Shown one piece after another: positions 310-40,854 of a stretch of 61,871 nt of DNA. This stretch comes from an uncultured Elusimicrobia bacterium. Its GTDB lineage: Bacteria > Elusimicrobiota > Elusimicrobia > UBA1565 > UBA9628. How positions within the stretch are numbered: position 1 is the stretch's first letter; each line of letters starts with the position of its first letter. Made by a program: the position numbers and the translations under genes. The stretch is from assembly GCA_964358065.1 (NCBI GenBank), contig CAYHNV010000001.1:1-61871 (forward strand), written 5' to 3'. The notes under the pieces are model-generated. The model made no database searches. It was not told the origin of the DNA and saw only the letters and a program-made list of their open reading frames with translations.

Positions 310-318
310 GTTTAGATT

Positions 319-1857: not shown

Positions 1858-1908
1858 GCGGCCTATTCTATTAAAATGAGAGTAGTTGCCGATTTGCTAA
1901 CATTCAAA

Positions 1909-2943: not shown

Positions 2944-2959
2944 GCGGCAGCGCTCGAAC

Positions 2960-21891: not shown

Positions 21892-22995
21892 ATGATCAAC
21901 GTTTTCGGCTCTCTGATGGGCCCGGAGGAGCTCGAGGAGGTCCGCACCAGTCTTGAGGCCCAGTGGATCGGCATCGGACCCAAGACCGCCGCTTTCGAGC
22001 AGGGTTTCGCGCAGCGCCTGGGGCTTCCCGGCTTCGTCCTGCTTGATTCCGGCTCCAACGCCCTGCACCTGGCGGTCAAGCTCCTCGACCTGCCTCCGGG
22101 CTCGGACATCCTGGTCCCCTCCTTCACCTGGATCGCCTGCGCGCATGCGGTCGTCCTGTCCGGCCATCGTCCCGTCTTCGCGGACGTGGACCTCGACACA
22201 CACAACATCACGCTGAAGACGGCCTCGGCGGCGCTCACGCCCAAGACCAAGGCCGTCATGGTCGTCCACTACGGGGGCCTGCCGGTCCGCGTCGATGAGA
22301 TCAAAACCTTGGGCCTGCCGATCATCGAGGACGCCGCCCATGCCGTGGATTCCCGTCTCAAGGACGCGGCCTGCGGCGGCATGGGTGAGGTCGGCATCTT
22401 CAGTTTCGACGCGATCAAGAACCTCGCGATGGGCGAGGGGGGCGGACTGACCGCCAAGGACCCCCAGCGCCTGGCGCGCGCGCGGCAGCTGCGCTACTGC
22501 GGCATCGGCAAGTCCGGCTTCGAGGCTTCGGCGTCGAAGGATCGCTGGTGGGAATACAACGTCACCGACTTCTTCCCGAAGATGCTGCCCAGCGACATCG
22601 CGGCCTCCATCGGCTTGGCCCAGCTGCGCAAGTTGGGCGCCATGCAGGCTTACCGCCGGAAGATATGGGAGCTCTACCAGAAAGAGTTCGCCTCCCTCGG
22701 CTGGCTCGCGCGGCCCCAGGACGCTCCGGCCGACGCCACTCATTCTTTTTTCACCTACTGCGTGCGGGTTCCGGCGGGCCGGCGAGACGCCTTCGCAAAA
22801 TACCTCTACCAGAACGGGATTTACACCACCTTGCGCTACCACCCGCTGCACATGAACAAGATATACGGCTCCTCAGCCCGGTTGCCGGTCTGTGAGCGCT
22901 TGAACGAGGAAGCCTTGAGCCTGCCTCTCCATCCGGGCCTCAAGGACGGCGATGTCGCCAAGATCGTGGACATGGTCAAGGCTTGGAAGGGATGA
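21892..22995 (+). CDS. DegT/DnrJ/EryC1/StrS-family PLP-dependent sugar aminotransferase
   Basis: Motifs: FEQGFAQRLG, DSGSNALHLA, PIIEDAAHAV and FSFDAIKNL (the PLP lysine). Confidence 0.88.
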   Translation: MINVFGSLMGPEELEEVRTSLEAQWIGIGPKTAAFEQGFAQRLGLPGFVLLDSGSNALHLAVKLLDLPPGSDILVPSFTWIACAHAVVLSGHRPVFADVDLDTHNITLKTASAALTPKTKAVMVVHYGGLPVRVDEIKTLGLPIIEDAAHAVDSRLKDAACGGMGEVGIFSFDAIKNLAMGEGGGLTAKDPQRLARARQLRYCGIGKSGFEASASKDRWWEYNVTDFFPKMLPSDIAASIGLAQLRKLGAMQAYRRKIWELYQKEFASLGWLARPQDAPADATHSFFTYCVRVPAGRRDAFAKYLYQNGIYTTLRYHPLHMNKIYGSSARLPVCERLNEEALSLPLHPGLKDGDVAKIVDMVKAWKG

Positions 22996-23015
22996 ACCTG
23001 TCAAGGAGTCGATCA

Positions 23016-23474
23016 ATGGGAAAGAAGATGTTTGTCGGCGGCTTGCCTTACGAAGTGACGGAGAGTCAATTGAGCGAGATGTTCTCCGCCTGCGGGCAGG
23101 TCGTGAGCGCGAAAGTGATCAAGGACCGCGACACCGGCCTCTCCAAGGGCTTCGGCTTCGTGGAGATGGGCAGTGACGCCGAGGCGGCGGCCGCGATTAT
23201 GAAGCTCCATAACAGTCCCGTGGGAGCGCGGCGCATCATCGTCAACGAAGCCCGTCCCATGGAGGCGCGCCCGAGCGGCGGTTTCGGCGAAAAGAAGAGC
23301 TTCGCCGGGCGGCCCGGGGGTTTTGCTCCCCGTCCCGGCGACGACAAGCCCGGAGGCCGCGGCGACCGCGGCGACCGCGGCGGCAAACGGGGCGGCTTCG
23401 ATGGCAAGCGCGGCGGCTTTGGCGGCAAGAAGGGCGGCAAGGGCCGCCGGGATGAGAGCGGCGACTCTTGGTGA
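23016..23474 (+). CDS. RRM-type RNA-binding protein with RGG/Gly-rich C-terminal tail
   Basis: AAGGAG at 23003-23008 lies 7 nt upstream of ATG 23016. MFVGGLPY is RNP-2 and KGFGFVEM is RNP-1. The tail reads GGRGDRGDRGGKRGGFDGKRGGFGGKKGGKG. Confidence 0.85.
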   Translation: MGKKMFVGGLPYEVTESQLSEMFSACGQVVSAKVIKDRDTGLSKGFGFVEMGSDAEAAAAIMKLHNSPVGARRIIVNEARPMEARPSGGFGEKKSFAGRPGGFAPRPGDDKPGGRGDRGDRGGKRGGFDGKRGGFGGKKGGKGRRDESGDSW

Positions 23475-23480
23475 GTTTGC

Positions 23481-24635
23481 TTATTTGACGCGGTGGTAGA
23501 AGAGGCCGAGGGCGAAGGAGACGAACACGCACTGGACTCCGGTCAGTACCGCGGCGATGGCGAGGATGGCCGCATCCAAGCGGAGCGTGTCGGGACCGCG
23601 AGGAAGGCGGTGGCCGTAGTATGAGATCGGCAGGTAGAAGAGGACGGCGCCGCCGAGCAGCGCCAACGCGCAGCCCAGGATGAGCCCTTTCTCCAGGCTG
23701 AAGGTCCGGTGCAGGAAGGCGCGGAGATGGCTGCGCGCGTCGTAGCGCTCCTGGTAGTCTGCTTCCTGGGCCACCACTCCAAGACCCAGGATGCTCGTGC
23801 CCATGAGCCAGAAGAGGAGCGCGGTCAGCATGTGCCGTGAGGTCAGCCAACCGAGCGCGTTCGGGGCCGCCCAATCGCGCGCCGTCAGTCCCAGCAGCAG
23901 CAGTCCGCCCACGGCCGAGCAGAAGACACCAGGGAAGAAGAACGTTCCCATGGGCGAGAAGAGGAGTATAAAGCGCAGATGACGCCAGCCGTCGCGCCAG
24001 GTGCGCAGATGCGGGGGCCGGTCGCGCAGATCCTTATAAAGATTGCAGGGGACCTCGGCGATCTTGAGGCTGATGAGAGAGGCTTTCACCAGCATCTCGG
24101 TGGCGAACTCCATGCCGTCGGCCTTCAGGCCCATGCGTTCGAAAGCATCGCGGCGCAGCGCGCGCATGCCGCAGTTGGTATCGCCCAGGCCCGCGCCGAA
24201 GAGCAGGTTCATGACGGCGGTCAGGACCGGGGTGCCCAGGTAGCGGTGCAGGAAGGGCATGGCCCCCGGGGCGATCACGCCCTGGAAGCGGTTGCCGACC
24301 ACGAGGTCGAAGCCCGCGCGCAGTTTCTCCACGTAAGCGCCGCATTCCTCGAAATCGTAGGAGCCGTCCGCATCCGCCATCAAAAGGAAGCGACCGCGCG
24401 CGGCGGAAAAACCGCCGCGCAGGGCCCGGCCGTAACCTCGGCCCTCGACCGGCACGACCCGGGCGCCCAGGGACTCGGAGATCTCCCGCGTCCGGTCGGT
24501 CGAGCCGTTGTCGGCGACCACGACTTCGCCGGGGACGGCGAGCGATGAGATCGCCTTGAGCGCCTTCTTGACGCAATGGGAGATCGTCTTCTCTTCATCG
24601 AGCGCGGGGATCACGATGGACAGCTCGATTTCCAT
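23481..24635 (-). CDS. DPM1/GtrB-like GT2 polyprenyl-phosphate sugar synthase with C-terminal TM helices
   Basis: Internal ATG 24635 (MEIELSIVIPALDEE). Motifs are VADNGSTDRT and LMADADGSYD, followed by about 4 C-terminal TM segments. It is a clear paralog of the N-domain of 17598-20000. Confidence 0.85.
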   Translation of the reverse strand: MEIELSIVIPALDEEKTISHCVKKALKAISSLAVPGEVVVADNGSTDRTREISESLGARVVPVEGRGYGRALRGGFSAARGRFLLMADADGSYDFEECGAYVEKLRAGFDLVVGNRFQGVIAPGAMPFLHRYLGTPVLTAVMNLLFGAGLGDTNCGMRALRRDAFERMGLKADGMEFATEMLVKASLISLKIAEVPCNLYKDLRDRPPHLRTWRDGWRHLRFILLFSPMGTFFFPGVFCSAVGGLLLLGLTARDWAAPNALGWLTSRHMLTALLFWLMGTSILGLGVVAQEADYQERYDARSHLRAFLHRTFSLEKGLILGCALALLGGAVLFYLPISYYGHRLPRGPDTLRLDAAILAIAAVLTGVQCVFVSFALGLFYHRVK

Positions 24636-24696
24636 AAGAATGAGGTTTCTCCGGTGGGCCGTGGAACGAATGCACTTTAGTATACTGGGGCCCAGA

Positions 24697-26385
24697 ATGA
24701 AATTCAAGCGCGCTTTTGTCGCCGGGTTGAAGCGCCATCGCGCCTTCCTGACGGTCGTTCCCCCGGCGGCGCTGCTGCGGCTGGTGGGGATCGGCTACGG
24801 TCTGCCGGCGGTGTTCAACGGCGACGAACCCCATCACGTCAACGTGGCCATGTCCTTCGGCCGCGGCAGCCTCAACCCAGGGATATTCAAATATCCGACG
24901 CTGTGGATGTACGTCCTGTTCGCGGCCTATGCGGGCGGGTTTATCCTGTGGTCGGGAGCGGGGTTGCTGGGATCCGCGCAGGAATTCGGGGAGCTGTTCG
25001 TCTGGCGCCACTCGGGTTTCTACCTTGCCGGCCGCCTGCTTTCGACCGCGTTCTCCCTGGGGGGATTATGGTGGGTCTATCGCGCGGCCGGCCTGGCGGG
25101 GGGCCGCCCGTCGGGAGTGTTGGCCGCCGCTCTTCTCGCCGTCTCCGCCCCGATGATCGAGTCGGCTCATTCGGTCAAGCCGGACTGTCTGATGTTCTTC
25201 TTCGCCGCCTGGTCCTGGTGGCAGGCGATGGCGTACTTGGAACTCGGCGGCTGCCGTCGACTGCTGCTGTGCGCGGCGGCGGTGGGGCTGTCCGTATCGA
25301 GCCAGTACACGGCGGCGCCGCTGGCCGTTCTAGTCCCGGTGGTCTGGCTGGCGCGCCGCCGCCTGCGTCCCGGCCGGGCCGATGGAGCGGGAGTTCTGGC
25401 GGCGGCTCTGGCGGTCGTGGGACTGCTCTTCTTGGCGGGGACTCCATTCGCCCTGCTGGACGCGCCGACTTTCGCTCGGGATGTGCGAGACAGTTGGGCC
25501 GCGCACGGTGCGGGCCAAGCCATGACGGCGGGCTGGCGTCCGTTGTTCAATCTGATGGGATTCTCCGCGTCTTGGCCGCTGGGGGCCGTCGTGCTGTCGG
25601 CGGGGATCGTCCGGCTTGGGCGGCGCAGTCCGGCGCACGCCTTGTGCCTGTTGCTGCCTTGCGCGGCGACCGTCCTCTTCTTCTCCCGTCAGGCCGTCGG
25701 GGGCAACGCCCGGTATCTGTACAGCGTATTTCCCGCCGTCGCGATCCTTTCCGCGTTGGGGGTTCGGACGTTGGTCGGACGTGGAGGAGTCTTCCCGGTG
25801 GGCATTCGGCTGAGGTGGGTGGTCTTCCTTCTGCTGTTGTTGCCGGGAGCCCGGGCGAGTTGGAGCTTCGACCGGGAACTCCTTCTTCCCGACACGCGTA
25901 CGTTGGCATCCCTATGGGTTGGTGAGAACCTGCCGGCCGGCACGAGGATCCTCTCCGATCATGAGGCGGACGCGCCGCGCATCGCGATGAGCCGCGATTT
26001 CGCGCTTCACCTTTATGAACTGATGAAGGCCTCCGGTCATCCGCGCCGGCGGTACTATCAGTTGATGGCCTCCGGCCATCCGGGCGGCGGCTATGAGGTC
26101 TATCAGGTCCATCGGGCGGCGGCGGAGCTGTTAAGCGGGCCCTGGCACGCGCAGTGGTCCGCGGCCGGGCGACCGGTGATGGATGTCCGGGAGGGACTCG
26201 ACGTCGCTCGGAAGGCCGGCGTCGAGGTGGTGATCCTGACCAGCTTCGGCTTGGCCAGGAACGAGAGCGAGCCTTACGTGCTTCAGACCCGCTCACAGGG
26301 GCGTCTGCTGTCCGAGTTCCGGCCCGAGACGGGGAAGATCCGTGGTCCCCATATCGAGATCTACCGCGTCGGGTCGGAGAGATGA
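24697..26385 (+). CDS. GT-C-fold membrane glycosyltransferase (ArnT/PMT_2-like)
   Basis: ATG 24697 (MKFKRAFVAGL...), with an alternative ATG at 24670. It has the first-loop motif VFNGDEPHHVN, more than 10 TM segments, and a soluble C-terminal domain. It is divergent from the GT2 at 23481-24635. Confidence 0.75.
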   Translation: MKFKRAFVAGLKRHRAFLTVVPPAALLRLVGIGYGLPAVFNGDEPHHVNVAMSFGRGSLNPGIFKYPTLWMYVLFAAYAGGFILWSGAGLLGSAQEFGELFVWRHSGFYLAGRLLSTAFSLGGLWWVYRAAGLAGGRPSGVLAAALLAVSAPMIESAHSVKPDCLMFFFAAWSWWQAMAYLELGGCRRLLLCAAAVGLSVSSQYTAAPLAVLVPVVWLARRRLRPGRADGAGVLAAALAVVGLLFLAGTPFALLDAPTFARDVRDSWAAHGAGQAMTAGWRPLFNLMGFSASWPLGAVVLSAGIVRLGRRSPAHALCLLLPCAATVLFFSRQAVGGNARYLYSVFPAVAILSALGVRTLVGRGGVFPVGIRLRWVVFLLLLLPGARASWSFDRELLLPDTRTLASLWVGENLPAGTRILSDHEADAPRIAMSRDFALHLYELMKASGHPRRRYYQLMASGHPGGGYEVYQVHRAAAELLSGPWHAQWSAAGRPVMDVREGLDVARKAGVEVVILTSFGLARNESEPYVLQTRSQGRLLSEFRPETGKIRGPHIEIYRVGSER

Positions 26386-27848
26386 ACGAAGCAGCCTCCG
26401 AGCGCCGTCTCGTCGGCGTGGTCTTTATTTCCTGCCTGCTGCTGTATCTTTCTTTCCGCTCGCTGTACTTCAACTTCGACGGGATCGCCTGCGCCACCGC
26501 GGTCGAACTTTCCGATTTCAAGCACCTGGTCCATGGCAACCATCTGGTTTACGGGGTGCTGGGGTGGCTTTTCGATCAAGGGTGGCGCCTCCTCGGTTAC
26601 GGCGGCCGCGCCATCCTCTCGCTCCAGGTCCTGGATGGAATTCTTGGCGCGGCCGCAGCCGCGGTCTTCGCCTCGATCCTGCACCGCGCCGGGCGCGGCG
26701 AGCGCGAGGCGGCGCTCGGCGCGGCCGCGCTGGCGGTCTCGCAGGCCTGGTGGTTCTGGAGCCTGGAGGCGCAGGTCTACATGCTGGGAGCGCTCTTTGC
26801 CGCACTCTCCGCGCGTGAGGCCCTGGCCGACAGTCCGAGTCCGGAACGTCTCGGACTCTGGCATGCGGGCGCGGTGTTGGGACACGTCGGGCACGTGATG
26901 GCGCTTCCGGCGCTGATCTTCATCCTGACGCGCAAGCGCGGGTGGGCGAGCGTTGTCCCCTATGGCGGCGTCCTGGCCGGGGCGGTGCTTGCTTCTTACG
27001 CGCTCGCGGGCGTCTTCGCCGTACGCCCCCAAGCCCTCGCGGAACTATGGTTGTGGCTGGTGGGCAGCGCCGCGCTCGGTCCCGACCGGGCCTTCTCCTG
27101 GCATGCACCGACCTTTGTCGCCGCCTTCCCGGATTGGGGCCGGATGACACTGCGAATCTTCTGCGATTTTGTCGGGAGCTCGGGTGCCGTCTGGTGCGCC
27201 GGCGTCATCCTGGCGGCGCTGCCGTTGGCCGCCGCCGTCGTCGGGGCCGTCCGGGGAGGGCTTGTGGGGCGCTTCTGGATCCTCTGGCTGGGCGGCTACG
27301 CGGCGCTTTACCTGACCTGGGAACCAGCCACGGTCGTCTATCGTGTCAGCGACCTGCTCGCACTATGGGCCTTGGGGCAAATTGCCATCGCGCGCCGGCC
27401 TTCTTGGATGCGCAGCGGCGCGCTTGCAGCCTGGGTCGCGGCGGCCTTCGCCTACAACCTCATCTTCCTCGTGCGCCCGTCCGCCGATCCGGCGTCCAAC
27501 GCGGACCTCGTCGAAGCGCGTTGGACCGGGGAGCACGTGCCCGAGGACGCATGGGTGTTGGCCAACAGCCGCGGCGCCATCTACCTGCCGTACTTCATGG
27601 GTCTTAAGCCCCTGAACCTGCGCTACTTCATGGCTGGGGATGCCCTCTTTGCCCGGCTCGACGCGCTGGCGAAGAACGGCGAAGCCGTTTATGCGACGGA
27701 TCGCACGATGGAGCATGTCGGGGTGCGTGAAGCGCTGGGGCGCTATGGGTTGGAGGATGCTGTTTCCGGCGAAGGGCTTAGGCTCTACCGCGTCAGGCGA
27801 AAGGCGGGCAAACGCGAGCACCATCGATATGGTAAAGTAAAAAAATGA
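26382..27848 (+). CDS. Polytopic membrane protein, probable GT-C-like (DUF2723/TMEM260-like appearance)
   Basis: The ATG at 26382 overlaps the upstream stop (ATGA). The N-terminus SLYFNFDGIACATAVELSDFKHLVHGNHLVYGVLGWLF is followed by many TM segments and a soluble C-terminal region. Confidence 0.5.
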   Translation: MNEAASERRLVGVVFISCLLLYLSFRSLYFNFDGIACATAVELSDFKHLVHGNHLVYGVLGWLFDQGWRLLGYGGRAILSLQVLDGILGAAAAAVFASILHRAGRGEREAALGAAALAVSQAWWFWSLEAQVYMLGALFAALSAREALADSPSPERLGLWHAGAVLGHVGHVMALPALIFILTRKRGWASVVPYGGVLAGAVLASYALAGVFAVRPQALAELWLWLVGSAALGPDRAFSWHAPTFVAAFPDWGRMTLRIFCDFVGSSGAVWCAGVILAALPLAAAVVGAVRGGLVGRFWILWLGGYAALYLTWEPATVVYRVSDLLALWALGQIAIARRPSWMRSGALAAWVAAAFAYNLIFLVRPSADPASNADLVEARWTGEHVPEDAWVLANSRGAIYLPYFMGLKPLNLRYFMAGDALFARLDALAKNGEAVYATDRTMEHVGVREALGRYGLEDAVSGEGLRLYRVRRKAGKREHHRYGKVKK

Positions 27849-28624
27849 CCATAAAGGTGGCCATTTTAGCCGGCGGTCTTGGCTCCAGACTCTCCGAGAT
27901 GACGGATCGCCTCCCCAAGCCCATGGTCGAGATCGGCGGCCGGCCGATCCTCTGGCACATCATGAAGCATTACGCCCACTTCGGCATGCGCGACTTTGTG
28001 ATCGCGTTGGGATATAAGGGAGAGGTCATCAAGGACTATTTCGTCAACTATCACCTCCACAGCAATCATCTCACCGTTCGCCTCAAGACGGGCGCCGTCG
28101 AGGTTTCGGAAGGCGGCCATGAGGATTGGAAGGTCCATCTTCTCGATACCGGGGAAAAAACACAGACCGGCGGGCGCGTGCGGCGGGTCATGCAGTCCGT
28201 GGGCCGGGAGCCCTTGATGCTGGCCTATGGCGACGGGGTTTCCAATGTGGATATCGGGAAACTCCTCAAGTTCCATCGCGCTCACGGCAAGCTTGCGACG
28301 GTGACCGCGATGCGGCCCCCCGCGCGCTTCGGCGCGCTGCAGCTCAAGGCCGACAGGGTCACGCGCTTCATCGAAAAGCCCCAGGCCGGCGACGGCTGGA
28401 TCAACGGCGGTTTTTTTGTGCTCGAGCCGGGCGTCATCGATTATATCGAGGGAGACCTCACCCTTTTCGAGAAGGAGCCGCTGGAGCGTTTGGCGCGCGC
28501 GGGGCAGCTCGTCGCCTACCGCCATGATGATTTCTGGCAGTGCATGGACACCGTCCGGGATGTGCGGCTGCTCGAGGACCTCTGGGGCGGGGGCAAGGCC
28601 CCATGGAAACTGTGGAAGCGATGA
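27845..28624 (+). CDS. rfbF: Glucose-1-phosphate cytidylyltransferase
   Basis: Motifs: ILAGGLGSRLSEMTDRLPKPMVEIGGRPILWHIMKHY, GGRV and INGGFFVLEP. Length is about 259 aa. ATGA overlaps at both ends. Confidence 0.92.
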   Translation: MTIKVAILAGGLGSRLSEMTDRLPKPMVEIGGRPILWHIMKHYAHFGMRDFVIALGYKGEVIKDYFVNYHLHSNHLTVRLKTGAVEVSEGGHEDWKVHLLDTGEKTQTGGRVRRVMQSVGREPLMLAYGDGVSNVDIGKLLKFHRAHGKLATVTAMRPPARFGALQLKADRVTRFIEKPQAGDGWINGGFFVLEPGVIDYIEGDLTLFEKEPLERLARAGQLVAYRHDDFWQCMDTVRDVRLLEDLWGGGKAPWKLWKR

Positions 28625-29604
28625 AGGATCCCTGGTCCAAGAGCCGCGTGCTTGTCACGGGCGCCACCGGCATGGTCGGCGCATGGCTCGTCAAGGAGCT
28701 CCTCCGGCGGGGCGCTTACGTCGCGGCCCTGGTCATGGACGGCGACCCGCAATCCGAACTCTATCGCAGCGGCGATGTCCAACGAACGTCGGTCGTCAAC
28801 GGCCGTCTGGAGGATTTTAGGACGCTTGAGAGAGCCGTCAGCCTCCATGAGATCGACACCGTGTTCCACCTGGGCGCACAGGCGATCGTGGGGGCCGCCC
28901 AGCGCATCCCCCTGGCCACCTTCGAGGCGAACATCCGAGGCACCTACAACCTGCTCGAGGCCTGCCGCCTGCACCGAGACCTGGTCCGGCGCGTCGTGAT
29001 CGCCTCCAGCGACAAGGCATACGGCGATCAGGGCAAGAAGCCCTACGAAGAAACGATGGAGCTCAGGGGCCGCCGTCCCTACGAGGTATCCAAGAGCTGC
29101 GCGGACCTGCTCGCGCAGAGCTACCACCACAGCTACGGGTCGCCCGTCGCCATCGCGCGCTGCGGCAACATCTATGGGGGAGGCGATCTCAATTGGAGCC
29201 GCATCGTCCCCGGCACAATCCGCAGTCTTCTGCGCGGTGAGCGTCCCCTCATCCGCAGCAACGGCGCCTATGTGCGGGACTATTTCTTCGTGAAGGACGC
29301 CGTCGCCGCTTATCTGGGATTGGCGGAGAACTTGGCGGACAGCCGCGTGCGCGGGGAGTGCTTCAACTTCGGGCCGAAGAAGCCGTCGACCGTCACGGAG
29401 ATCGTCGCCGAGATCCAGAGACTGATGGGAACCCGCCTCAAACCCGACATCCGTGACCAGGTGCGCGGCGAGCTTGTGAGCCAGCATGTCTGTTCAGCCA
29501 AGGCGGAAGCCTTGCTCGGCTGGAAGACAGGGTATGGGCTCGAGCAGGGTCTGGCGGAGACCATCGCGTGGTACAAAGATTTCCTGCAGGGTCCCCTCAG
29601 ATGA
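28621..29604 (+). CDS. rfbG: CDP-glucose 4,6-dehydratase
   Basis: ATG 28621 (MKDPWSKSRVLVTGATGMVGAWL). YEVSKSCAD is the YxxxK motif, and WSRIVPG is also present. It sits directly downstream of rfbF. Confidence 0.85.
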   Translation: MKDPWSKSRVLVTGATGMVGAWLVKELLRRGAYVAALVMDGDPQSELYRSGDVQRTSVVNGRLEDFRTLERAVSLHEIDTVFHLGAQAIVGAAQRIPLATFEANIRGTYNLLEACRLHRDLVRRVVIASSDKAYGDQGKKPYEETMELRGRRPYEVSKSCADLLAQSYHHSYGSPVAIARCGNIYGGGDLNWSRIVPGTIRSLLRGERPLIRSNGAYVRDYFFVKDAVAAYLGLAENLADSRVRGECFNFGPKKPSTVTEIVAEIQRLMGTRLKPDIRDQVRGELVSQHVCSAKAEALLGWKTGYGLEQGLAETIAWYKDFLQGPLR

Positions 29605-30050
29605 TCGACGGCGTCACCATCCGCCCCTTACGCCAGATCCCGGACGAGCGCGGCAAGGTCATGCACATGCTGAGGCGCGACGATCCATGGTATGAAGAGT
29701 TCGGAGAGATCTATTTCTCCTGCGTCTATCCGGGCGCGATCAAGGCGTGGCATCTGCACAGGAGCATGATCCTCTCTTACGCGGTCGTCAGCGGTGCGAT
29801 CAAGCTGGTCTTATACGATGCCCGCTCCCGCTCCAAGACCAAGGGGATGCTTCAGGAGGTATTCACCGGAGAGTCCCAGTACTCGCTGATCCGGGTCCCT
29901 CCCGGCGTCTGGAACGGCTTCAAAGGGCTCGGCGAGACGATGTCGATCGTGGCCAACTGCGCCTCCGAGCCTCACGATCCCCAAGAGATCGTCCGTCTCG
30001 ACCCCTCGTCCAAGAAGATCCCCTACGACTGGGCGCTCAAGAATGGGTAA
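29601..30050 (+). CDS. RmlC-like cupin sugar-nucleotide epimerase (dTDP-4-dehydrorhamnose 3,5-epimerase family, short form)
   Basis: ATG 29601 (MIDGVTIRPLRQIPDERGKVMHMLR). Motif: IKAWHLHRSMILSYAVVSGAIKLVLYDARSRSKTKG. About 149 aa. Confidence 0.75.
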   Translation: MIDGVTIRPLRQIPDERGKVMHMLRRDDPWYEEFGEIYFSCVYPGAIKAWHLHRSMILSYAVVSGAIKLVLYDARSRSKTKGMLQEVFTGESQYSLIRVPPGVWNGFKGLGETMSIVANCASEPHDPQEIVRLDPSSKKIPYDWALKNG

Positions 30051-32274
30051 GGCGCTGGTCATCGGCGTCTCCGGTCAGGTGGGCTCCGCGATCAAGGCCG
30101 TTCTAGAGCGAGAGGGCATCGAGACGGTCGGGACCCATGGCCGCCGCCCCGAGTCGGGCTCTCGGAGCCTCGACGTGCGCGACGGCCGAGCGGTGGAGCT
30201 CTGTTTCAACGACGTCAAGCCGAGCGTCGCCTTCATCGCGGTCAATCCTCCAGGAGGCGTCGACCACTGCGAGAGAAATCCCGAGGAATGTTTCGCGACG
30301 ATCGTCGCGGGAACGCGGAACATCGTCGCGTCGGCGGCGAAACACAAGACCAAACTCGTCTACTACTCCAGCGATTATGTCTTCGACGGCGCGTCGGGGC
30401 CCAATTCCGAAGAAGACCCGCCTCGACCGCTCAACGTCTACGGACAGGCCAAAGTGCGGGCGGAAGAGGCGGTGCGCGAGGATTCCCCCGAGCATCTGAT
30501 CCTGAGGACCACGGCGGTGTTCAGCTGGAAGCGTCCCTCCGCCAACTTCGCCATGCAGGTATGGGAGACCCTCCAGGCGGGTAAGCCGCTGAGAGTCCCG
30601 AGCGACCAATGGGGCAACCCCACTCTCGCTGAATACCTCGCCGAAGCCACCCTTCGCCTGGTGTCCGCCGGAGAGAAAGGGACGTTCAACGTGGTCGGCA
30701 AGGACCGCATACCCCGCTCGGAACTGGCGGCGTTGCTCGCCAAGGCGATGGGTCTCGATCCACGACTGATCGTCCTGGTCGCCACGACCACGCTGGGTCA
30801 GGCCGCCGCGCGCCCGCTCCAAGGGGGGCTCAAGACCGAGAAAATGCGGCGCGTGCTGGGGACCGAACCTCTCGCCCTCGACGAGGCTCTCAAGCGCCTG
30901 ACCCGCCAATGGCGCCGCGACACCCACGTCAAGCCCGCCGGAGGGGCGTCGACCGCGCAGCGGACGCTCAAGGATGAGATCCTCCAGGCGGTCAAACGCT
31001 ACCATGCGGCCGCCCACCGGCCGGACGGATTCATCCCATTCAAAAGCCGCGTCCAATACGCCGGTCGGGTGTTCGGCGAGACCGAACTCGTGAACCTCGT
31101 CGACAGCTCGCTCGATTTCTGGCTGACGCTGGGTCCTTATGGCGACCTTTTCGAGCAAAAGATGCGGGGGTTCTTCGGCTCGCGGGATTTCATCATGGTG
31201 AACTCCGGCTCGACGGCCAATCTGACCGCGGTGATGGCGCTGATGTCCGCGCAACGCGAGCGCGCCCTCAAGCCCGGCGACGAAGTGATCACGCCGGCCG
31301 TCACCTTTCCGACGACGGTCGCCCCCCTGGTGCACAGCGGGTTGATCCCCGTGTTCGTCGACTGCGAGGTCGGGACGTACAACATCGATCCGCGGCGTAT
31401 CGAAGGAGCGATCTCCTCCAAGACGCGTGCGCTGTTCATCCCGCACACCCTCGGCAACCCATGCGACATGGATGCCATCATGGACATTGCCCGCCGCCGC
31501 CGCCTGTTCCTCATCGAGGATGCCTGCGACGCGCTCGGCTCGCGATTCCGGGGCAAACTCGTGGGGACCTTCGGGGAGCTGGCGACGCTGAGCTTTTTCC
31601 CCGCCCATCACATCACGACCGGGGAGGGCGGCGGCGTCATCGTCAACGATCCCGCGCTGTCGCGCATCGTCCGTTCGGTGCGCGATTGGGGACGCGATTG
31701 TTGGTGCGCTCCGGGCGAGACGAACACCTGCGGCAAGCGGTTCGGGTGGGAGCTGGGCGGTCTTCCCTGCGGGTACGACCACAAATACATCTACTCCAAC
31801 CTCGGCTACAACTTCAAACCCACGGACATGCAGGCCGCCATCGGGGCCGCCCAAGCCGACCGCATCCCCGATTTCACGCAAGCCCGCCGCCGCAACTTCA
31901 ACCGTCTTTATCAGGGGCTCGAGAGATTCTCGGACCACCTGGTGCTCCCGACGCTCGATCCAAGATCAGAGCCGTCGTGGTTCGGCTTGCCGATCACGGT
32001 CAGGGGCGTCGCGCGCGGAGAGCTCGTCGGGTGGCTGGAGAACGCCAATATCGAGACACGACAGGTCTTCGGCGGCAATATCCTCAAGCAGCCGGGATAT
32101 CGGAACATCCAGATGCGTCAATCCGGGACCCTCGAGCAGACGGATCGGATCATGAGGGACACATTCTTCATCGGCGTCTACCCGGGTCTGACCGAGGAGA
32201 TGATCGATTTCGTCTTGGAACGCTTCACGGGATTCTTCGCCGCGAGGGCGCATCACTCGAATGCCGGGATCTAA
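30043..32274 (+). CDS. Fusion protein: RmlD-like NAD(P)H sugar 4-ketoreductase (N-terminal) plus CDP-6-deoxy-4-keto-hexose 3-dehydrase E1 (RfbH/DdhC/AscC-like, C-terminal)
   Basis: N-terminal motifs: KALVIGVSGQVGSAI, VYYSSDYVFDG and YGQAKVRAEE (YxxxK). C-terminal motifs: NSGSTANL, EDACDALGS, and SFFPAHHITTGEGGG, where His replaces the PLP Lys as in E1. DCWCAPGETNTC (31699-31731) has C-x1-C-x7-C spacing like the E1 2Fe-2S site. GYDHKYIYSNLGYNFKPTDMQAA is also present. Confidence 0.85.
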   Translation: MGKALVIGVSGQVGSAIKAVLEREGIETVGTHGRRPESGSRSLDVRDGRAVELCFNDVKPSVAFIAVNPPGGVDHCERNPEECFATIVAGTRNIVASAAKHKTKLVYYSSDYVFDGASGPNSEEDPPRPLNVYGQAKVRAEEAVREDSPEHLILRTTAVFSWKRPSANFAMQVWETLQAGKPLRVPSDQWGNPTLAEYLAEATLRLVSAGEKGTFNVVGKDRIPRSELAALLAKAMGLDPRLIVLVATTTLGQAAARPLQGGLKTEKMRRVLGTEPLALDEALKRLTRQWRRDTHVKPAGGASTAQRTLKDEILQAVKRYHAAAHRPDGFIPFKSRVQYAGRVFGETELVNLVDSSLDFWLTLGPYGDLFEQKMRGFFGSRDFIMVNSGSTANLTAVMALMSAQRERALKPGDEVITPAVTFPTTVAPLVHSGLIPVFVDCEVGTYNIDPRRIEGAISSKTRALFIPHTLGNPCDMDAIMDIARRRRLFLIEDACDALGSRFRGKLVGTFGELATLSFFPAHHITTGEGGGVIVNDPALSRIVRSVRDWGRDCWCAPGETNTCGKRFGWELGGLPCGYDHKYIYSNLGYNFKPTDMQAAIGAAQADRIPDFTQARRRNFNRLYQGLERFSDHLVLPTLDPRSEPSWFGLPITVRGVARGELVGWLENANIETRQVFGGNILKQPGYRNIQMRQSGTLEQTDRIMRDTFFIGVYPGLTEEMIDFVLERFTGFFAARAHHSNAGI

Positions 32275-33046
32275 GATCGCGATCTTCATTCCCGCCTACA
32301 ACGCGGCCTATACATTGCCGGTGGTCCTCGACCGCATCCCACCCGAGATCAAGGAGAAGGTCCAGAAAATCTTCGTCATCGACAACGCCAGTCCCGACAA
32401 CACCTATCTGATCGGCATCGGATATCGGCAGGCCAAGGGCCTCGATAAGCTGGAGGTGTTCCGCAACGACAAGAATCGCGGCTATGGGGGCAGCCAGAAG
32501 ATCGCTTACCGCTACGCCATCGACAACGGCTTCGACATCGTCGTGATGCTTCACGGGGACGCCCAATACGCCCCGGAAAAGATCCCCGCCCTGCTCGAAC
32601 CACTGGAACTCGGCCAGGCGGACATGGTCTTCGGGTCCCGCATCGCGGGCCTCCCGCTCAAGGGCGGCATGCCGCTCTACAAGTTCCTCGGCAACAAGTT
32701 CCTGACCTGGGTCCAGAACAGGGTGCTCGGCATGGATTTAAGCGAGTTCCATTCCGGCTTCCGCCTTTTTAGCTGTGCGGCGCTGGCGCAACTTCCGTTC
32801 GATCTTTGCGCCGATGACTATCATTTTGACACCGACATCCTCCTGCAGTTCAAGATCAAGAGACTGCGTATCGTGGAATTGCCGATACCGACCTACTATG
32901 GAAAGGAAAAATGCGGCGTCAACGTGATCAGCTATGGCCTGAACGTCTTAAAATCGACGCTGGAGTACTGGCTCTGGTCGAAGGGCCTGCTCCGGGCCAA
33001 AAAATTCACGGCATGCCTTCGTCCGGCCGAGGTCCTGGCGCGATGA
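32261..33046 (+). CDS. DPM1-like GT2 polyprenyl-phosphate sugar synthase (soluble type)
   Basis: Motifs: IAIFIPAYNAAYTL, VIDNASPDNT, GYGGSQK and MLHGDAQYAPE. It is a paralog of 54524-55291 and is followed by a GT-C gene with an ATGA overlap. Confidence 0.82.
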   Translation: MPGSKIAIFIPAYNAAYTLPVVLDRIPPEIKEKVQKIFVIDNASPDNTYLIGIGYRQAKGLDKLEVFRNDKNRGYGGSQKIAYRYAIDNGFDIVVMLHGDAQYAPEKIPALLEPLELGQADMVFGSRIAGLPLKGGMPLYKFLGNKFLTWVQNRVLGMDLSEFHSGFRLFSCAALAQLPFDLCADDYHFDTDILLQFKIKRLRIVELPIPTYYGKEKCGVNVISYGLNVLKSTLEYWLWSKGLLRAKKFTACLRPAEVLAR

Positions 33047-34260
33047 GCCGCGGCCGGCTGTTGCTGGCACTCGGGGCTCTCGGCTTGATGCTTCGCGTCG
33101 GCTATGCGAGTCATGTTTATTTCAGCGGCGTCAGCCACCCGGCGATGGATGAGTATGAGACGATCGCGCGCCAGCTTGTCGCGCACGGGCGCTACGATTG
33201 CGAGCCGGGCGTGCCGACCGCGGCCCGAGAGCCGGCCTATCCGTTCTTCATCGCTTTGGTCTACGTTGTCGCAGGACTCAATCCCTATGCGATCTTCCTT
33301 GCGCACGCCCTTCTCGGCCTGCTGACTTGCGTCTTCATCCGGTTGACCGCCCGGAGAGTCTTCGGGGAGACGGCCGGCGACGTTGCGTTCGCGATATCTC
33401 TATTCTACCCGTACTTCATCTTCTACACGGGCTACACCTACCGGGAGACCTTCCTGTGCTTTGCCGTCTCGGCGGCGCTCTTTCTTCTGGGGCGCCTCGT
33501 CGAGAGTCCGGGGCTGGGCAGGGCGGCGCTCGCCGGCGGCGCGGTCGGGCTTTGCTCCGTGACACTCTCGACCTGGGTGCCGGTCTGCGCCGTGATGGGT
33601 GCCTGGACGGCCTGGAACCTCCGGAACGCGCGCCGGGCACTCATGGCTTTCCTGCTCATCGCCGCGCTTCTGCCCTCGGCGTGGCTGCTTCGCAATATCG
33701 TCACCTTTAGACGCTTTATACCGGGCAGCACGCTGGGGGGCTTTAATCTCTACACGGCGCTCATCGTTCCTGAGGATTTTCGCGGCACCGAGCGCGAGCA
33801 CGAGTTCGAGGCCTCCGACCCGCATTGGAGCCGTATCCTTGCCATGAGCACGCTCTACGCCGATGATGGGCACCAGCAGGAGGCCTTCGTGGCCGCGGCC
33901 GGCGCGCGCATCCGCGAGCGCCCGGGCGAGTACCTTGCGCATGTGCGGCGCCAGGCGGTCAAGCTCTGGCGCCCATATCCGTACCCGCGTCAATACCAAC
34001 ATTCATACGTCTGGATCAAGCTCCTGAGTCTCATCTCCGATGGGTGGTTGATCCCGCTCGGGTTCTGGGGCCTGTGGATCCAGCGCAAGAAATCCCCCGA
34101 ACTCGCGCTGCTCATTGCCGTGCCGCTCAGCGCGACGGCTGTCTGCGCCCTTATTTCAGCGATTCTGCGCTACCGCCTGCCGCTGATGATCCCGTTGATC
34201 ATCGCGTCCTCGGCCGTCATCGGATCTTTCCTCGACAGGAGATCAGCCGTGAAGTCTTAA
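33043..34260 (+). CDS. GT-C-fold membrane glycosyltransferase (ArnT/PMT_2-like)
   Basis: ATG 33043 (MSRGRLLLALGALGLMLRVGYA...). It has the first-loop motif HPAMDEYETIA and about 10 or more TM segments. Confidence 0.75.
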   Translation: MSRGRLLLALGALGLMLRVGYASHVYFSGVSHPAMDEYETIARQLVAHGRYDCEPGVPTAAREPAYPFFIALVYVVAGLNPYAIFLAHALLGLLTCVFIRLTARRVFGETAGDVAFAISLFYPYFIFYTGYTYRETFLCFAVSAALFLLGRLVESPGLGRAALAGGAVGLCSVTLSTWVPVCAVMGAWTAWNLRNARRALMAFLLIAALLPSAWLLRNIVTFRRFIPGSTLGGFNLYTALIVPEDFRGTEREHEFEASDPHWSRILAMSTLYADDGHQQEAFVAAAGARIRERPGEYLAHVRRQAVKLWRPYPYPRQYQHSYVWIKLLSLISDGWLIPLGFWGLWIQRKKSPELALLIAVPLSATAVCALISAILRYRLPLMIPLIIASSAVIGSFLDRRSAVKS

Positions 34261-34281: not shown

Positions 34282-36903
34282 ATGGCTGACGCCCGCAAAG
34301 GGACCTTTAAGGAAACCCGTCTTGGCCCCGAGATCTTTGCCCACAAGGCGATCACCCTCTGGCTTCCCGTCCTTTATTTCCTAATTTCCTCGCTGTTCTT
34401 CCTGCGCACCTACGATTCCGCCCAGGTCAAGATCACGATGATGCAGATGGGCGGCGTGGGCCTGCTGACCTTATGGCTGTGCCGTCTGGTCTTGGCCGGA
34501 CGCCGGGCCCTCAACAAAGACGACCTGATCTGTCTTGCCCCGTTTCTGGCCTATCTGCTCGTCGGTATCCTGTCCTTCCTGCACGCTCCCTACCGCATGG
34601 CGAGCATGGACTTCTTCATCCGCCAGATGTTCTACATGCTCGTGGCTCTCATCGTCATCTACGAGCTCGACGAGGCCGCGGTCCACCATCTGTTCAAGTG
34701 GCTTATCTGGACGGCCTGGGTTGCCATCGGCTACGGCATGCTCCAGTTCATTGATACCCGGTGGTTTCCGCCCGGCGCCGGCAAAGGACTCGATCCCTTC
34801 GTGTGGCGGGGCGCCTTCGGTTCCCGTGTCTTCTCGACTTACGGCAACCCAAACTTCTACGGCGATTTCCTCGTCATCATGTTCCCCATCCTGCTGACCC
34901 AGTTCCTAAAGACCAGGCGCTGGAGCCTGGTGCCGCTCTTGGCCATGCTCCTGATCAGCCTCGTGGCGACCGGGACCAAGGGCGCCTGGCTTGGCTTCGC
35001 CATGGTCTGCGTTCTTTTCGGGGCCGCCTCCCTCGTCTACTTCAAGGAGTTCAGCCGCCCCTATCGGGCTCGGATCCTCGGCGTCGCCGCTTTCTGCGCC
35101 CTGGGCCTTATCGGCTACACGGCCAAGGACCTGCAGACGCGCGTCGTCTCGATCAACTTCCGCCTCTTCACCTGGGAGGCCGCCTGGGAGCTTATCCGCA
35201 CCCAGCCGCTGATCGGCTCCGGGGTCGGGGCCTTCCCGCCTCTCTACCCCGCTTTCCGTCGTCCTTCGATCTTCCACATCGAAGGCAAGCATAACACCGA
35301 GACCGACCACGCCGAGAACGAGTACATCGAACAACTCCTCGACAACGGCATCATCGGCTTCGGCATCTTCCTGTGGCTCATTGTCAGCACCCTCTTCATC
35401 GGCTGCAGGTCCCTGGGGCAGTTGACCACCTCCCTGGCGCTCAAGGACGGCCGCCCGCCGCCTCGCGCTTATGACCTGACGGGACTGCTCGTTTCCTTCT
35501 GCGGGATGCTCGGACACAACTTCTTCGACGTGAGCCTGCGCTTCGTGTCCTCGGGCGTCTACCTGGGGCTCTTGGCCGGCCTCATCGTCAACGTGGCCCG
35601 CGGCCGAGCCCTGTACGAGCGCCATAGCGTCCCGGACGCGCTTTCTTCCGCCCAGGCGGCCTCCGCGGAACCTTCGATCTGGCGGACTCTCTCGGAGTTC
35701 ATCCTCTGGCCCGCGCGGCTGGCCGCGCTCGGCGGCGTCCTCTATTGCGCTTTCCTGATGGATTGGGGCCGTCTTGGGCGCCTGATCGGTTTCGGCGGTT
35801 TCTTCGGCGATTTCGCGGCCCTGCTGGGGCCGCTCTCCCGCGTATCGCCCAACGGCGACCTCCTGCAGTGGTGGGCGGCCTGGGGGGTCTTCGCGGGCTG
35901 CATGTTCAGCCTCGGTTATGCCGTCCTCCGTCTCTGCTTCATGTCCGAGAACCCCGTGATCTCGCTGCTGGTCCTGGCCATGCTCGCCCCCTTAAACCTC
36001 TTTTGGGGCTACTTCAAGGCCGACATCCATCATAATGTCGCCATCTATTTCTCGAAGGCGCGCAATTGGGACGCGGCCGTGGCCAACTACCTCATCGTCA
36101 ATAAGCTCAACCGCGACTTTGTCATGGCGAAGTACTTCCTGGGGAACGTCTTTAACGACCGCTTCAACATGACGAAGGTCTACAACCCGAACTGGGGAGA
36201 CAAGGACGACGTTGCGATGGATGACTACGAGCGCGCCTTATACTGGTACAACGAGGTCCGGCGCCTGTCTCCGAACTATGTCCAGATGCATCACCAGGTC
36301 GGCAATCTCCACCTGCGGCGCGCCCAGTGGGCCACGGACAACAAGCGTCCGGAGGAAGCCGCGAAGTACCTGGACCTGGCGGTCAATCGCTACCGCCTCT
36401 ACCAGGCGATAGACCCCGTCTTCGCGCCCAACTACTACCGCATGGGCCAGCTCTATATGATGCGCCAGCAGTACGACGAGGCGACCAAGGTCTACGAGGA
36501 TCTGATCAATGCTCCGCAGTGCGAAGTGGCCGACTCGATCCTTTCAAAAAACATCCTGCGCGGCACCATCCTGTCCTACCAGCAGTACGTTCTGGAGGAC
36601 GGGCGCTGGGCCCATCGCCACGCCATCCCGCGAGAACCGCACATCCGAGAGGGCGCTGAGGCCTACACGAGCCTGGCCAACGCCCATTTCATGGCGGGCC
36701 GTCTCGAGGAGTCCGAAAAGTTCTACAAGAAGGCCCTGTCTTTCGACCCGGCTTTCGAACAGGCCAAGCGCAACCTCGAAGTGGCCTATCGGAAGGCTCA
36801 GTCGGAAGGTCGTCTGAAACAACTGCCTCCGCCCGCCAAGCTGCCGGGTCCCGGGGAGAGTCCCTTCACCGGCTATGAAGTCGCTCCAAAACCTAGGAAG
36901 TAG
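34282..36903 (+). CDS. O-antigen ligase/polymerase-like (Wzy_C domain) membrane protein with C-terminal TPR repeats
   Basis: The N-terminal half has more than 10 TM segments. The HNTETDHAENEYIEQLLDNGIIGFGIF loop is a Wzy_C-type H..N.Y...L.e.G motif. The C-terminal roughly 300 aa are TPR-like (YERALYWYNEVRRLSPNY, YDEATKVYEDLI, LEESEKFYKKALSFDPAF). Confidence 0.8.
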   Translation: MADARKGTFKETRLGPEIFAHKAITLWLPVLYFLISSLFFLRTYDSAQVKITMMQMGGVGLLTLWLCRLVLAGRRALNKDDLICLAPFLAYLLVGILSFLHAPYRMASMDFFIRQMFYMLVALIVIYELDEAAVHHLFKWLIWTAWVAIGYGMLQFIDTRWFPPGAGKGLDPFVWRGAFGSRVFSTYGNPNFYGDFLVIMFPILLTQFLKTRRWSLVPLLAMLLISLVATGTKGAWLGFAMVCVLFGAASLVYFKEFSRPYRARILGVAAFCALGLIGYTAKDLQTRVVSINFRLFTWEAAWELIRTQPLIGSGVGAFPPLYPAFRRPSIFHIEGKHNTETDHAENEYIEQLLDNGIIGFGIFLWLIVSTLFIGCRSLGQLTTSLALKDGRPPPRAYDLTGLLVSFCGMLGHNFFDVSLRFVSSGVYLGLLAGLIVNVARGRALYERHSVPDALSSAQAASAEPSIWRTLSEFILWPARLAALGGVLYCAFLMDWGRLGRLIGFGGFFGDFAALLGPLSRVSPNGDLLQWWAAWGVFAGCMFSLGYAVLRLCFMSENPVISLLVLAMLAPLNLFWGYFKADIHHNVAIYFSKARNWDAAVANYLIVNKLNRDFVMAKYFLGNVFNDRFNMTKVYNPNWGDKDDVAMDDYERALYWYNEVRRLSPNYVQMHHQVGNLHLRRAQWATDNKRPEEAAKYLDLAVNRYRLYQAIDPVFAPNYYRMGQLYMMRQQYDEATKVYEDLINAPQCEVADSILSKNILRGTILSYQQYVLEDGRWAHRHAIPREPHIREGAEAYTSLANAHFMAGRLEESEKFYKKALSFDPAFEQAKRNLEVAYRKAQSEGRLKQLPPPAKLPGPGESPFTGYEVAPKPRK

Positions 36904-38148
36904 CGCCGCAACGCTTGCCTTGGGAGCGCTCCTTTGCGCGGGAGCCGCCGTCGCCGAGCCCCTGGGCAGCGAGCCTGTCCCCCCAAACCGCATCTTTCGT
37001 GCGCTTGAAGCAGAGATGGCGCGCAGCCTCAGGTTTCTCAAGCAAGATCGCTTCGGCCCGCCCTATTTCCTGGCCTACCGGCTCCATGACGCGCGCCGCT
37101 ACGATGTTACGGCCTCTCTCGGCGCCATCGTCGGAAACGAGGACGCCGATTACCGCCTCGCCTACGCGGAGGCGCGCTACGGCGGCCGCGACATCGACAA
37201 TACGGACCTTAACTATCAGGGAGCCGCCTCCAGCGCGCCCTCGGACCCGGAGGTCCTGCGTCAGACCTTCTGGCAGTTGACCGATACGGTCTACAAGGGC
37301 GCTCTCTCCGGCTGGCTTGAGAAGAAGGCCAAACGCGCCACGGAACTCATCACGGATCCGCTCGACGACTTCACGCTTGAAGCCTCCACGGTCGCCGTCG
37401 CGGTCCCGACTTCTCCCGTTTACGACGGCCGCAAGCTCCGGGCCTTGGTTCTGCGTTTGAGCGATGTCTTCCGCGCCTATCCCGATATCCAGGAATCCAA
37501 CGCCTCGGCGACCGTTTCCTGGGCGCGCCGCTCCACGGCTCTTATGACTTCGACTCCGAAGGCTCGCCTTCTCGTCGGACGACCCTCGTGTCGCGCGGAC
37601 TGCTGCGCGAGTTTCTGATGTCGCGCTGGCCGGTAAAGGGATTTGCGCGGACGAACGGCCACGGACGCTCCGATGGGAGGTCTCATCCCACGGGCCGCAT
37701 GGCCAATCTGATCGTCTCGGCGGAGGGCGCGGTCCCGCTCGCGCGGCTGGAAGATCGCCTGCTTGAGCTGACGCGCCTTGCCGGCAAGCCCTATGGGTTT
37801 CTCCTCGTGGGGGCATTCGGCGGGGAGAACCCCACGACGCGCGACTCGGCGCAGACCCTGGAGGTGCGGCCGCGGCTGGTCTATCGCGTGGACGCCAAGA
37901 CCGGCGCGAAGACCCTCGTGCGCGGCGTCAAGCTTGTCGGCACTCCGATTGTGGTCCTTAACCGCATCGTGGCGGCCGGCGACGACATGAGGATCTCGAA
38001 CGGCTTCTCGTGCGGCGCCGAGTCAGGCTGGGTTCCGGTCAGCCAGACCGCGCCGAGCCTGCTCTTCTCCGAAGTCGAACTCCAGCGTCTGCCCGAGGAC
38101 CGTTCGCGGCCGCCGATCCTGCCTTCTCCGCTCCATGACCCTCGCTAG
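36875..38148 (+). pseudogene. Secreted TldD/PmbA-fold protein, disrupted copy (internal deletion plus frameshift near 37530)
   Basis: ORF 36875-37618 has a signal peptide (MKSLQNLGSSAATLALGALLCAGAAVA) and parallels the N-terminal third of gene 38135-39781. A second frame (track ORF 37588-38148, open from further upstream) reads GSYDFDSEGSPSRRTTLVSRGLLREFLMSRWPVKGFARTNGHGR... and parallels the paralog's C-terminal third (GRYEYDDQGVPARRTVLVERGVLKGFLLSRYPVKGFVRSNGHGRG). The middle, about 150 aa, is missing, and the two halves are out of frame. Confidence 0.5.
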
Positions 38149-40853: not shown

Positions 40854-40854
40854 C

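Follow-up and report, generated by a model that had tools for sequence, protein, structure and literature searches.

A predicted CDP-3,6-dideoxyhexose cassette with a fused RmlD-like reductase and E1 dehydrase in an uncultured Elusimicrobia bacterium

The first 61,871 nt of contig CAYHNV010000001.1, from an uncultured Elusimicrobia bacterium (assembly GCA_964358065.1), here called the window, carry four overlapping genes at 27845-32274 on the + strand. By family assignment, the four open reading frames (ORFs) are a glucose-1-phosphate cytidylyltransferase (rfbF), a short-chain dehydrogenase/reductase (SDR) resembling cytidine diphosphate (CDP)-glucose 4,6-dehydratase, a small cupin, and a 743-aa protein in which an RmlD-like reductase domain precedes a domain of the E1 type (CDP-4-keto-6-deoxyglucose 3-dehydrase). 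Start and stop codons overlap as ATGA at 27845, 28621 and 29601, the cupin and fusion genes share 8 nt, and the fusion gene shares 14 nt with a downstream family 2 glycosyltransferase (GT2) gene, which bears out the translational coupling of the four genes that the original prediction had described. The ATGA at 27845 joins the rfbF start to the stop of an upstream membrane-protein gene, so the cassette is part of a longer operon, and the surroundings (~60 kb) are a large glycan-biosynthesis region. Families were called by Pfam and NCBIfam models with curated cutoffs, and relatives were sought by PDB sequence search and Foldseek. The family assignments of all four genes support the earlier description of a CDP-3,6-dideoxyhexose-type cassette, and on sequence evidence the region is predicted to be an operon for a CDP-activated 3,6-dideoxy sugar.

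The first gene, rfbF (27845..28624, +; 259 aa), scores 373 bits against the equivalog model TIGR02623, above its cutoff of 300, and passes as RfbF/DdhA, in agreement with the glucose-1-phosphate cytidylyltransferase proposed for it; its product is 54% identical to Salmonella RfbF. The second gene (28621..29604, +) encodes a divergent SDR of 327 aa from the ATG at 28621, with alternative starts upstream at 28603 and 28540. The proposal that it is a CDP-glucose 4,6-dehydratase draws support from its position directly after rfbF and from its top PDB relatives, the CDP-glucose 4,6-dehydratases 1WVG (131 bits) and 1RKX (126 bits), but its 205 bits against TIGR02622, the model for that enzyme, lie under the equivalog cutoff of 278. 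Identity to Salmonella RfbG is 30%.

The third gene (29601..30050, +; the ORF can also be read from 29568) encodes a cupin of 149 aa that had been called an RmlC-like epimerase. It scores 34 bits against PF00908, slightly above the cutoff of 27, but the similarity to RmlC itself is remote: genuine RmlC structures are reached only at E~0.003, BLAST gave no match to Salmonella RmlC, and no NCBIfam model matched the protein. Its close structural relative is PDB 3EJK, which it matches with 132 bits over the full length and which belongs to a subfamily labelled 'dTDP sugar isomerase'. 3EJK is the sole solved member of this subfamily, a structural-genomics protein with no assigned function. In our reading of the alignment, no residue of the cupin clearly corresponds to the catalytic Tyr of RmlC.

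The fourth gene (30043..32274, +) encodes the fusion protein, which is matched by PF04321 and NF011936. Its C-domain (aa 306-743; 30958..32274, +) is the better defined half. Residues 305-733 score 627 bits against the RfbH model NF011936 (cutoff 423), the domain is 52% identical to Salmonella RfbH, and the leading Foldseek matches of its AlphaFold2 (AF2) model are 3BB8 and 3BCX, at a TM of 0.92. Both E1 hallmarks named in the original prediction, a His at the position of the Lys that binds pyridoxal 5'-phosphate and a C-x1-C-x7-C motif, align with the Yersinia E1. The His is His522 (codon 31606-31608) in the motif PAHHITTGEGG; it aligns with Yersinia His220, and the H220K mutant 3BB8 has Lys in the same column. 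The motif DCWCAPGETNTC contains Cys553 (31699-31701), Cys555 (31705-31707) and Cys563 (31729-31731). A fourth cluster cysteine that had gone unmentioned, Cys495 (31525-31527), gives the spacing C-X57-C-X1-C-X7-C, and in the alignment with 3BCX Cys495/553/555/563 correspond to Yersinia Cys193/251/253/261. Agnihotri et al. reportedly assigned, in 2004, the four E1 cysteines as ligands of a [2Fe-2S] cluster. Yersinia Cys257 is replaced by Glu in the window protein, consistent with Cys257 being no ligand. His522 and the four cluster cysteines are invariant among 46 aligned homologs. These features point to an E1/RfbH-type 3-dehydrase that depends on pyridoxamine 5'-phosphate (PMP) and a [2Fe-2S] cluster, and not to an enzyme of the ColD type.

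The N-domain (aa 1-294; 30043..30924, +) is a predicted RmlD-like NAD(P)H 4-ketoreductase. PF04321 (RmlD_sub_bind) covers aa 4-289 with 179 bits against a cutoff of 27, and the motifs on which the RmlD-like assignment had been based are present, YSSDYVFDG at aa 107-115 and YGQAK at aa 133-137. The extended-SDR set is complete, with GxxGxxG (G8/G11/G14), S109-D111-Y112 and YxxxK (Y133/K137), and each of these residues is conserved in at least 90% of homologs. The domain also carries one conserved extra cysteine, Cys76. Its AF2 model has a predicted local distance difference test (pLDDT) score of ~90, and its identity to Salmonella RmlD is 30%. The equivalog model TIGR01214 (rmlD) scores 168 bits over aa 4-286, under its cutoff of 224, so when both halves are compared with their reference families the C-domain matches the RfbH model but the N-domain is not an RmlD equivalog.

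The two domains are joined by a linker of ~10 residues (aa 295-305; 30925..30957, +) with pLDDT below 50 at aa 296-300. A homolog search over 5.8 billion proteins listed 120 matches; among these, at least 116 (clusters at 90% identity) are full-length, with 700-790 aa, 95-100% query coverage and 63-86% identity. NCBI, ENA, JGI and Logan assemblies are all represented among them, and where named their sources are Omnitrophica/Omnitrophota, Chloroflexi, Elusimicrobia, Rokubacteria and Vicinamibacterales metagenome-assembled genomes (MAGs), with annotations, where given, of RfbH or E1 only. In all 116 aligned homologs the frame is unbroken across the junction, and the linker, variable in sequence and length, is flanked by the conserved stretches ...LKRxxRxWRxDTH at the SDR end and LKxEIL... 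at the E1 start. The SDR and E1 catalytic motif sets are both more than 95% conserved in this alignment. At 50% identity there are six clusters of RmlD_sub_bind::E1 and two in which an Epimerase-type SDR precedes E1, and fusions in the reverse order, E1::SDR, were also found. The fused architecture is real, and it defines a large, conserved and widespread family. The joining of the first enzyme after the dehydratase to the last of the pathway had been regarded as unusual, a view that these counts do not sustain. A full-text literature search found no publication on an RmlD::RfbH fusion.

Gene order gives a clue to how the fusion may have formed. The order dehydratase-cupin-fusion is kept in seven of the compared loci (L001-L003, L005 and L085-L087), of which L005 is from an Elusimicrobia MAG. 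Reductase and E1 occur as separate adjacent genes in L015 (Omnitrophota), L063 (a deltaproteobacterium) and L017 (Planctomycetales), with the reductase upstream and its stop overlapping the E1 start in a different frame; L015 and L063 have the full order rfbF, rfbG, cupin, reductase, E1. That the two are operon neighbours in these split loci suggests why it is these two that fuse. The E1 proteins of the split loci are not the nearest relatives of the fused clade's C-domains. Most simply, the fusion would have arisen by joining the two neighbours, an adjacent and translationally coupled reductase and E1 becoming one protein through a stop-codon loss that restored the frame. Its effect would be a fixed 1:1 stoichiometry and co-localisation, with no new chemistry implied.

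The E1 homologs, fused and unfused, showed several further features. Some contain inteins, recognised by Intein_splicing, Hint and LAGLIDADG domains in Pfam, at three different active-site positions. In window codons, site A is at 31699 (Cys553; proteins P0086, P0088, P0089, P0100, P0130 and P0143), site B at 31525 (Cys495; P0142 and P0150) and site C at ~31618 (Thr526; P0178). An Fe-S ligand Cys serves as the +1 extein nucleophile at two of these positions (...WGRD|intein|CWCAPG and ...EDC|intein|CDALG), and the third lies directly past the catalytic His (PAHH..|intein|TGEGG). Six E1 representatives of 544-599 aa (P0132, P0134, P0139, P0147, P0156 and P0200) have an N-terminal extension of ~100-190 residues with no Pfam match, which may reflect mis-called starts or an extra domain. 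P0182 is a chimera of PGK and E1, probably an assembly artefact. On plasmid pHY1 of the cultured methanotroph Methylovirgula (L083, 9355-11108), rfbH is followed by two transketolase-subunit genes, an arrangement that recalls the synthesis of branched-chain (yersiniose-type) 3,6-dideoxy sugars.

E1 in its two-component form works with a flavin/2Fe-2S reductase, E3 (RfbI/AscD), and the original prediction had reported that none is encoded in the window. That observation holds by every approach taken. Pfam scans of ~50 ORFs with high GC at third codon positions, covering the 62-kb window, gave no Fer2, FAD_binding_6 or NAD_binding_1 domain, tblastn with Salmonella RfbI gave no match at E<=10, and a six-frame motif scan gave no ferredoxin motif; loose FAD and NAD signatures of the ferredoxin-NADP+ reductase (FNR) type occurred as isolated matches, never both in one ORF. 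The query was a genuine E3, encoded directly upstream of rfbF in the Salmonella rfb cluster. The same search found no match in 81 related E1 loci, which comprise L001 and loci from 80 GTDB representative genomes of bacteria and archaea, with fused as well as unfused E1, and which were searched with flanks up to 10 kb per side where the contig allowed. No E3-type domain occurs in the Pfam-annotated neighbourhoods of five fused homologs, and no E3 is annotated within 8 kb on either side of the rfbF-rfbG-rfbH clusters of Methylovirgula and Azospirillum, both cultured alphaproteobacteria. A conserved redox partner was also sought among the neighbours of the fused loci, where only generic glycosyltransferases recurred.

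Neither in the window nor in the 81 loci, then, is a reductase encoded together with E1 as in the E1/E3 two-component pair; this part of the E1 family normally has its E3 unlinked or lacks it. Unfused E1 genes are without E3 equally often, so the fusion is not correlated with E3 loss, and the lack of E3 in these loci and in the two alphaproteobacterial clusters makes E3 linkage look like an enteric speciality. The E1-type enzyme SpnQ provides a precedent: it uses ferredoxin/ferredoxin reductase or flavodoxin/flavodoxin reductase pairs, not E3 (PMC8987622). With this precedent and 81 of 81 loci alike, the missing E3 is not a paradox.

Taken together, the cassette is probably a self-contained, horizontally mobile four-gene module leading from glucose-1-phosphate to a CDP-3,6-dideoxyhexose. 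RfbF would form CDP-glucose, the divergent SDR would carry out the 4,6-dehydration, and the C-domain would take off the 3-OH by way of a PMP-glucoseen intermediate, to which two electrons must be supplied one at a time. The small cupin, presumed to be the C5 epimerase for CDP-4-keto-3,6-dideoxyglucose, would act next, and the N-domain would then reduce the 4-keto group with NAD(P)H. If its stereochemistry is RmlD-like, the product would be CDP-ascarylose (3-deoxy-L-rhamnose), and by analogy an ascarylose-like product is plausible. Thorson et al. are said to have described in 1994 the corresponding roles of AscE and AscF in the asc pathway, a 5-epimerase and then a 4-reductase acting after E1. 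In the rhamnose pathway, the classical substrates of RmlD-like reductases are 4-keto sugars already epimerised to the L-configuration. E1 would draw its electrons from housekeeping reductase systems based on ferredoxin or flavodoxin, as for SpnQ, or alternatively from an unlinked FNR-family reductase; by that analogy, the window E1 is most likely served by housekeeping one-electron carriers. We judge the proposal as a whole, that is, a four-gene CDP-3,6-dideoxyhexose module with housekeeping electrons, a fusion formed by gene joining and delivery through polyprenyl phosphate, to be reasonably probable.

Several observations weigh against it. The cupin is far from RmlC and its nearest structure has no function attached, so that its epimerase role, and with it the L-configuration, is something we infer. 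The dehydratase and the N-domain lie below their NCBIfam equivalog cutoffs, and substrate and stereochemistry may therefore differ from those of the reference enzymes. The order of the cassette varies: no cupin lies within the flanks of L004 and L017, and in L088 (Logan SRR22388013 contig, 278-3741), which holds the closest fusion homolog at 86% identity, rfbF is followed directly by the cupin and the dehydratase gene is missing between them. The predicted TM-score (pTM) of the AF2 model of the fusion, 0.58, leaves the inter-domain geometry undefined, which gives no structural support for channelling. A full-text literature search found no biochemical characterisation of the fused family, and with 62 kb of the genome in view, a dedicated E3 may be encoded elsewhere.

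These points bear most directly on the identity of the sugar. Because the cupin is remote from RmlC, the N-domain is below cutoff, two loci have no cupin within their flanks and one has no dehydratase gene between rfbF and the cupin, ascarylose is best treated as the inferred product. The cupin might not be a 5-epimerase, or might be dispensable, and the module would then yield a 3,6-dideoxyhexose of the D series, resembling paratose or abequose, or some other isomer. This would fit the apparent lack of a catalytic Tyr equivalent, the N-domain score under the RmlD equivalog cutoff, and the presence of reductase and E1 with no cupin within the flanks in L004 and L017. It fits less well with the retention of the cupin, translationally coupled, between dehydratase and fusion in most fused loci, and with the established preference of RmlD-like reductases for L-configured substrates, and we hold a D-series or other isomer to be a possible but doubtful outcome.

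The electron supply admits similar doubt. FNR-family reductases are common in bacteria, and a dedicated E3 of the AscD/RfbI type could be encoded elsewhere in the genome, outside the 62 kb in view; the E1/E3 system would then be of the standard kind, but with its genes apart. Linkage of a dedicated partner should, though, be seen in at least some loci, and no E3-like gene lies in the flanks (up to 10 kb per side) of any of the 81 loci, nor is a conserved redox gene found beside the cassette in the fused loci. Yersinia does offer a case of partial separation, with ddhD apart from ddhC and ddhA and ddhB between them (PMC5399914). On balance an unlinked dedicated E3 seems improbable, if still worth keeping in mind, and housekeeping carriers are the preferred source.

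It is unlikely that the SDR domain substitutes for E3. Such a self-sufficient 3-deoxygenase/4-reductase, in which NAD(P)H would feed E1 either straight away or via some unrecognised cofactor, is suggested by the covalent joining of an NAD(P)H-binding domain to E1, by the conserved Cys76 in that domain and by the lack of E3 in any fused locus. SDRs, however, donate hydride and have no flavin or metal centre for splitting two electrons, and the C-domain keeps its [2Fe-2S] ligands, pointing to one-electron chemistry. E3 is missing beside unfused E1 genes no less often, some loci encode the reductase as a gene of its own, AF2 shows no defined domain interface (pTM 0.58), and the pathway would be left without a 4-ketoreductase for its last step. 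The idea is accordingly given very little weight; more likely, the majority of environmental E1 enzymes do without any dedicated reductase, the E1/E3 pair being an enteric speciality.

Less credible still is a C-domain of the ColD type, an E3-independent dehydratase that recycles PMP with glutamate. The catalytic His-for-Lys is common to the C-domain and ColD and there is no nearby E3, but the C-domain scores 470 bits against the Yersinia E1 (3BCX) and 196 bits against ColD, passes the RfbH equivalog model well over its cutoff, and retains all four E1 cluster cysteines in exact spacing, invariant in homologs, where ColD itself has no Fe-S cluster (PMC8987622); the ColD assignment was rejected. 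Nothing was found in favour of an assembly or frameshift artefact near 30900-30960, and with 116 independent full-length homologs reading through the junction, their frame conserved on both sides of it, that explanation was discarded as having virtually no chance of being correct.

Downstream genes hint at how the sugar might be used. The GT2 gene that overlaps the fusion (32261..33046, +; 261 aa; PF00535) encodes a small protein resembling dolichyl-phosphate mannose synthase (DPMS) and ArnC; its top PDB matches are the Dol-P-Man synthase 5MLZ (E 4e-9) and ArnC, and from this similarity it is a candidate polyprenyl-phosphate dideoxyhexose synthase. Its stop overlaps, again as ATGA, the start of a PMT_2 membrane glycosyltransferase gene of the GT-C fold (33043..34260, +; PF13231), a candidate user of the lipid-linked sugar, and a gene for a Wzy_C-TPR protein also lies downstream. 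Two PMT_2/TMEM260-like membrane proteins, identified by Pfam, are encoded upstream in the same operon (24508..27848, +), the second ending in the ATGA shared with rfbF. A GT2 of 243-255 aa also follows the fusion in L087 and L088, and PMT_2 genes follow the cassette in L001, L085 and L088. This recurrence of DPMS/ArnC-like GT2 and GT-C genes downstream suggests a polyprenyl-phosphate carrier route, with a polyprenyl-phosphate-linked dideoxyhexose as donor for GT-C transferases outside the membrane. The GT2 would move the dideoxyhexose onto polyprenyl phosphate, and the PMT_2 transferases would then place it on a surface glycan or glycoprotein.

Also found in the window were features apart from the cassette. 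Amine-oxidase-type flavoproteins are encoded at 19931-21880 and 57875-59614, one with an N-terminal GNAT acetyltransferase fusion, and a DegT-family aminotransferase at 21892-22995; together these are hints of a second, amino-sugar pathway. A 163-aa protein with an RRM_1 RNA-recognition motif (22983-23474) lies amid glycosyltransferase genes, and a 984-aa B12-binding radical SAM protein (40825-43779), in which Pfam matches nothing in ~600 residues past the radical SAM domain, adjoins a GT2. Two short overlapping ORFs (36875-37618 and 37588-38148) lie ahead of a full PmbA/TldD-like gene (38135-39781); the first has no Pfam match, and for the second the match to PmbA_TldD_3rd is confined to the C-terminal part of that domain. 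The pair may represent a TldD/PmbA partner gene that is frameshifted or split. A class II fumarase (52447-53859) is 77-90% identical to proteins from Elusimicrobia/Elusimicrobiota MAGs, which points to that phylum as the probable origin of the window. Whole-window scans gave no tRNA gene and no Rfam match.

To our knowledge, how C-3 is deoxygenated on the way to 3,6-dideoxyhexoses is understood mechanistically only from the enteric E1/E3 pair. Most environmental E1 genes in these data, fused or not, are without a linked E3, and a large clade fuses E1 with the terminal reductase. The fused cassette is a known pathway in a form that is widespread yet uncharacterised, neither a paradox nor a new kind of system; the original prediction was right on the enzymology and overstated the oddity. 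If housekeeping reductants suffice, these four genes could offer glycoengineering a compact route to a CDP-3,6-dideoxy-L-hexose, and ascarylose-like surface sugars would be expected in uncultured phyla, Elusimicrobiota, Omnitrophota and Chloroflexota among them.

Known systems share different parts of this cassette. The structural counterpart of the cupin, 3EJK, aligns over the whole length at 132 bits, and with its function unassigned it permits no functional transfer. ColD, of the guanosine diphosphate (GDP)-colitose pathway, resembles the C-domain in fold and in its His-for-Lys active site; unlike it, ColD has no Fe-S cluster, recycles PMP with glutamate and takes a GDP-mannose-derived substrate. 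In that pathway ColC performs 5-epimerisation and 4-reduction after the 3-deoxygenation, yielding a 3,6-dideoxy-L-hexose. SpnQ from Saccharopolyspora spinosa is, like the window E1, a PMP/[2Fe-2S] dehydrase whose gene cluster encodes no E3 dedicated to it (PMC8987622), but it acts on thymidine diphosphate (TDP)-4-keto-2,6-dideoxyglucose, belongs to a natural-product cluster and has no reductase fusion. The Salmonella CDP-abequose module consists of RfbI (E3), RfbF, RfbG, RfbH and Abe synthase. It shares the rfbF-rfbG-...-rfbH order with the window, and its RfbF and RfbH are 54% and 52% identical to the window proteins; it differs in that E3 is encoded just ahead of rfbF and Abe synthase is a separate protein, whereas the window has neither of these but the cupin and the fused RmlD-like domain. 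The asc/ddh system of Yersinia pseudotuberculosis leads to CDP-ascarylose through AscA/DdhA, AscB/DdhB, AscC/DdhC (E1), AscD/DdhD (E3), AscE and AscF. The window departs from it in having no linked E3, in the fusion of reductase to E1, in a dehydratase only ~30% identical to its enteric counterpart, and in a 3EJK-type cupin as epimerase candidate. The two agree in the logic of cytidylyltransferase, 4,6-dehydratase, E1, epimerase and 4-reductase, and the window C-domain, at 470 bits, keeps the His220 and the Cys193/251/253/261 of the Yersinia E1.

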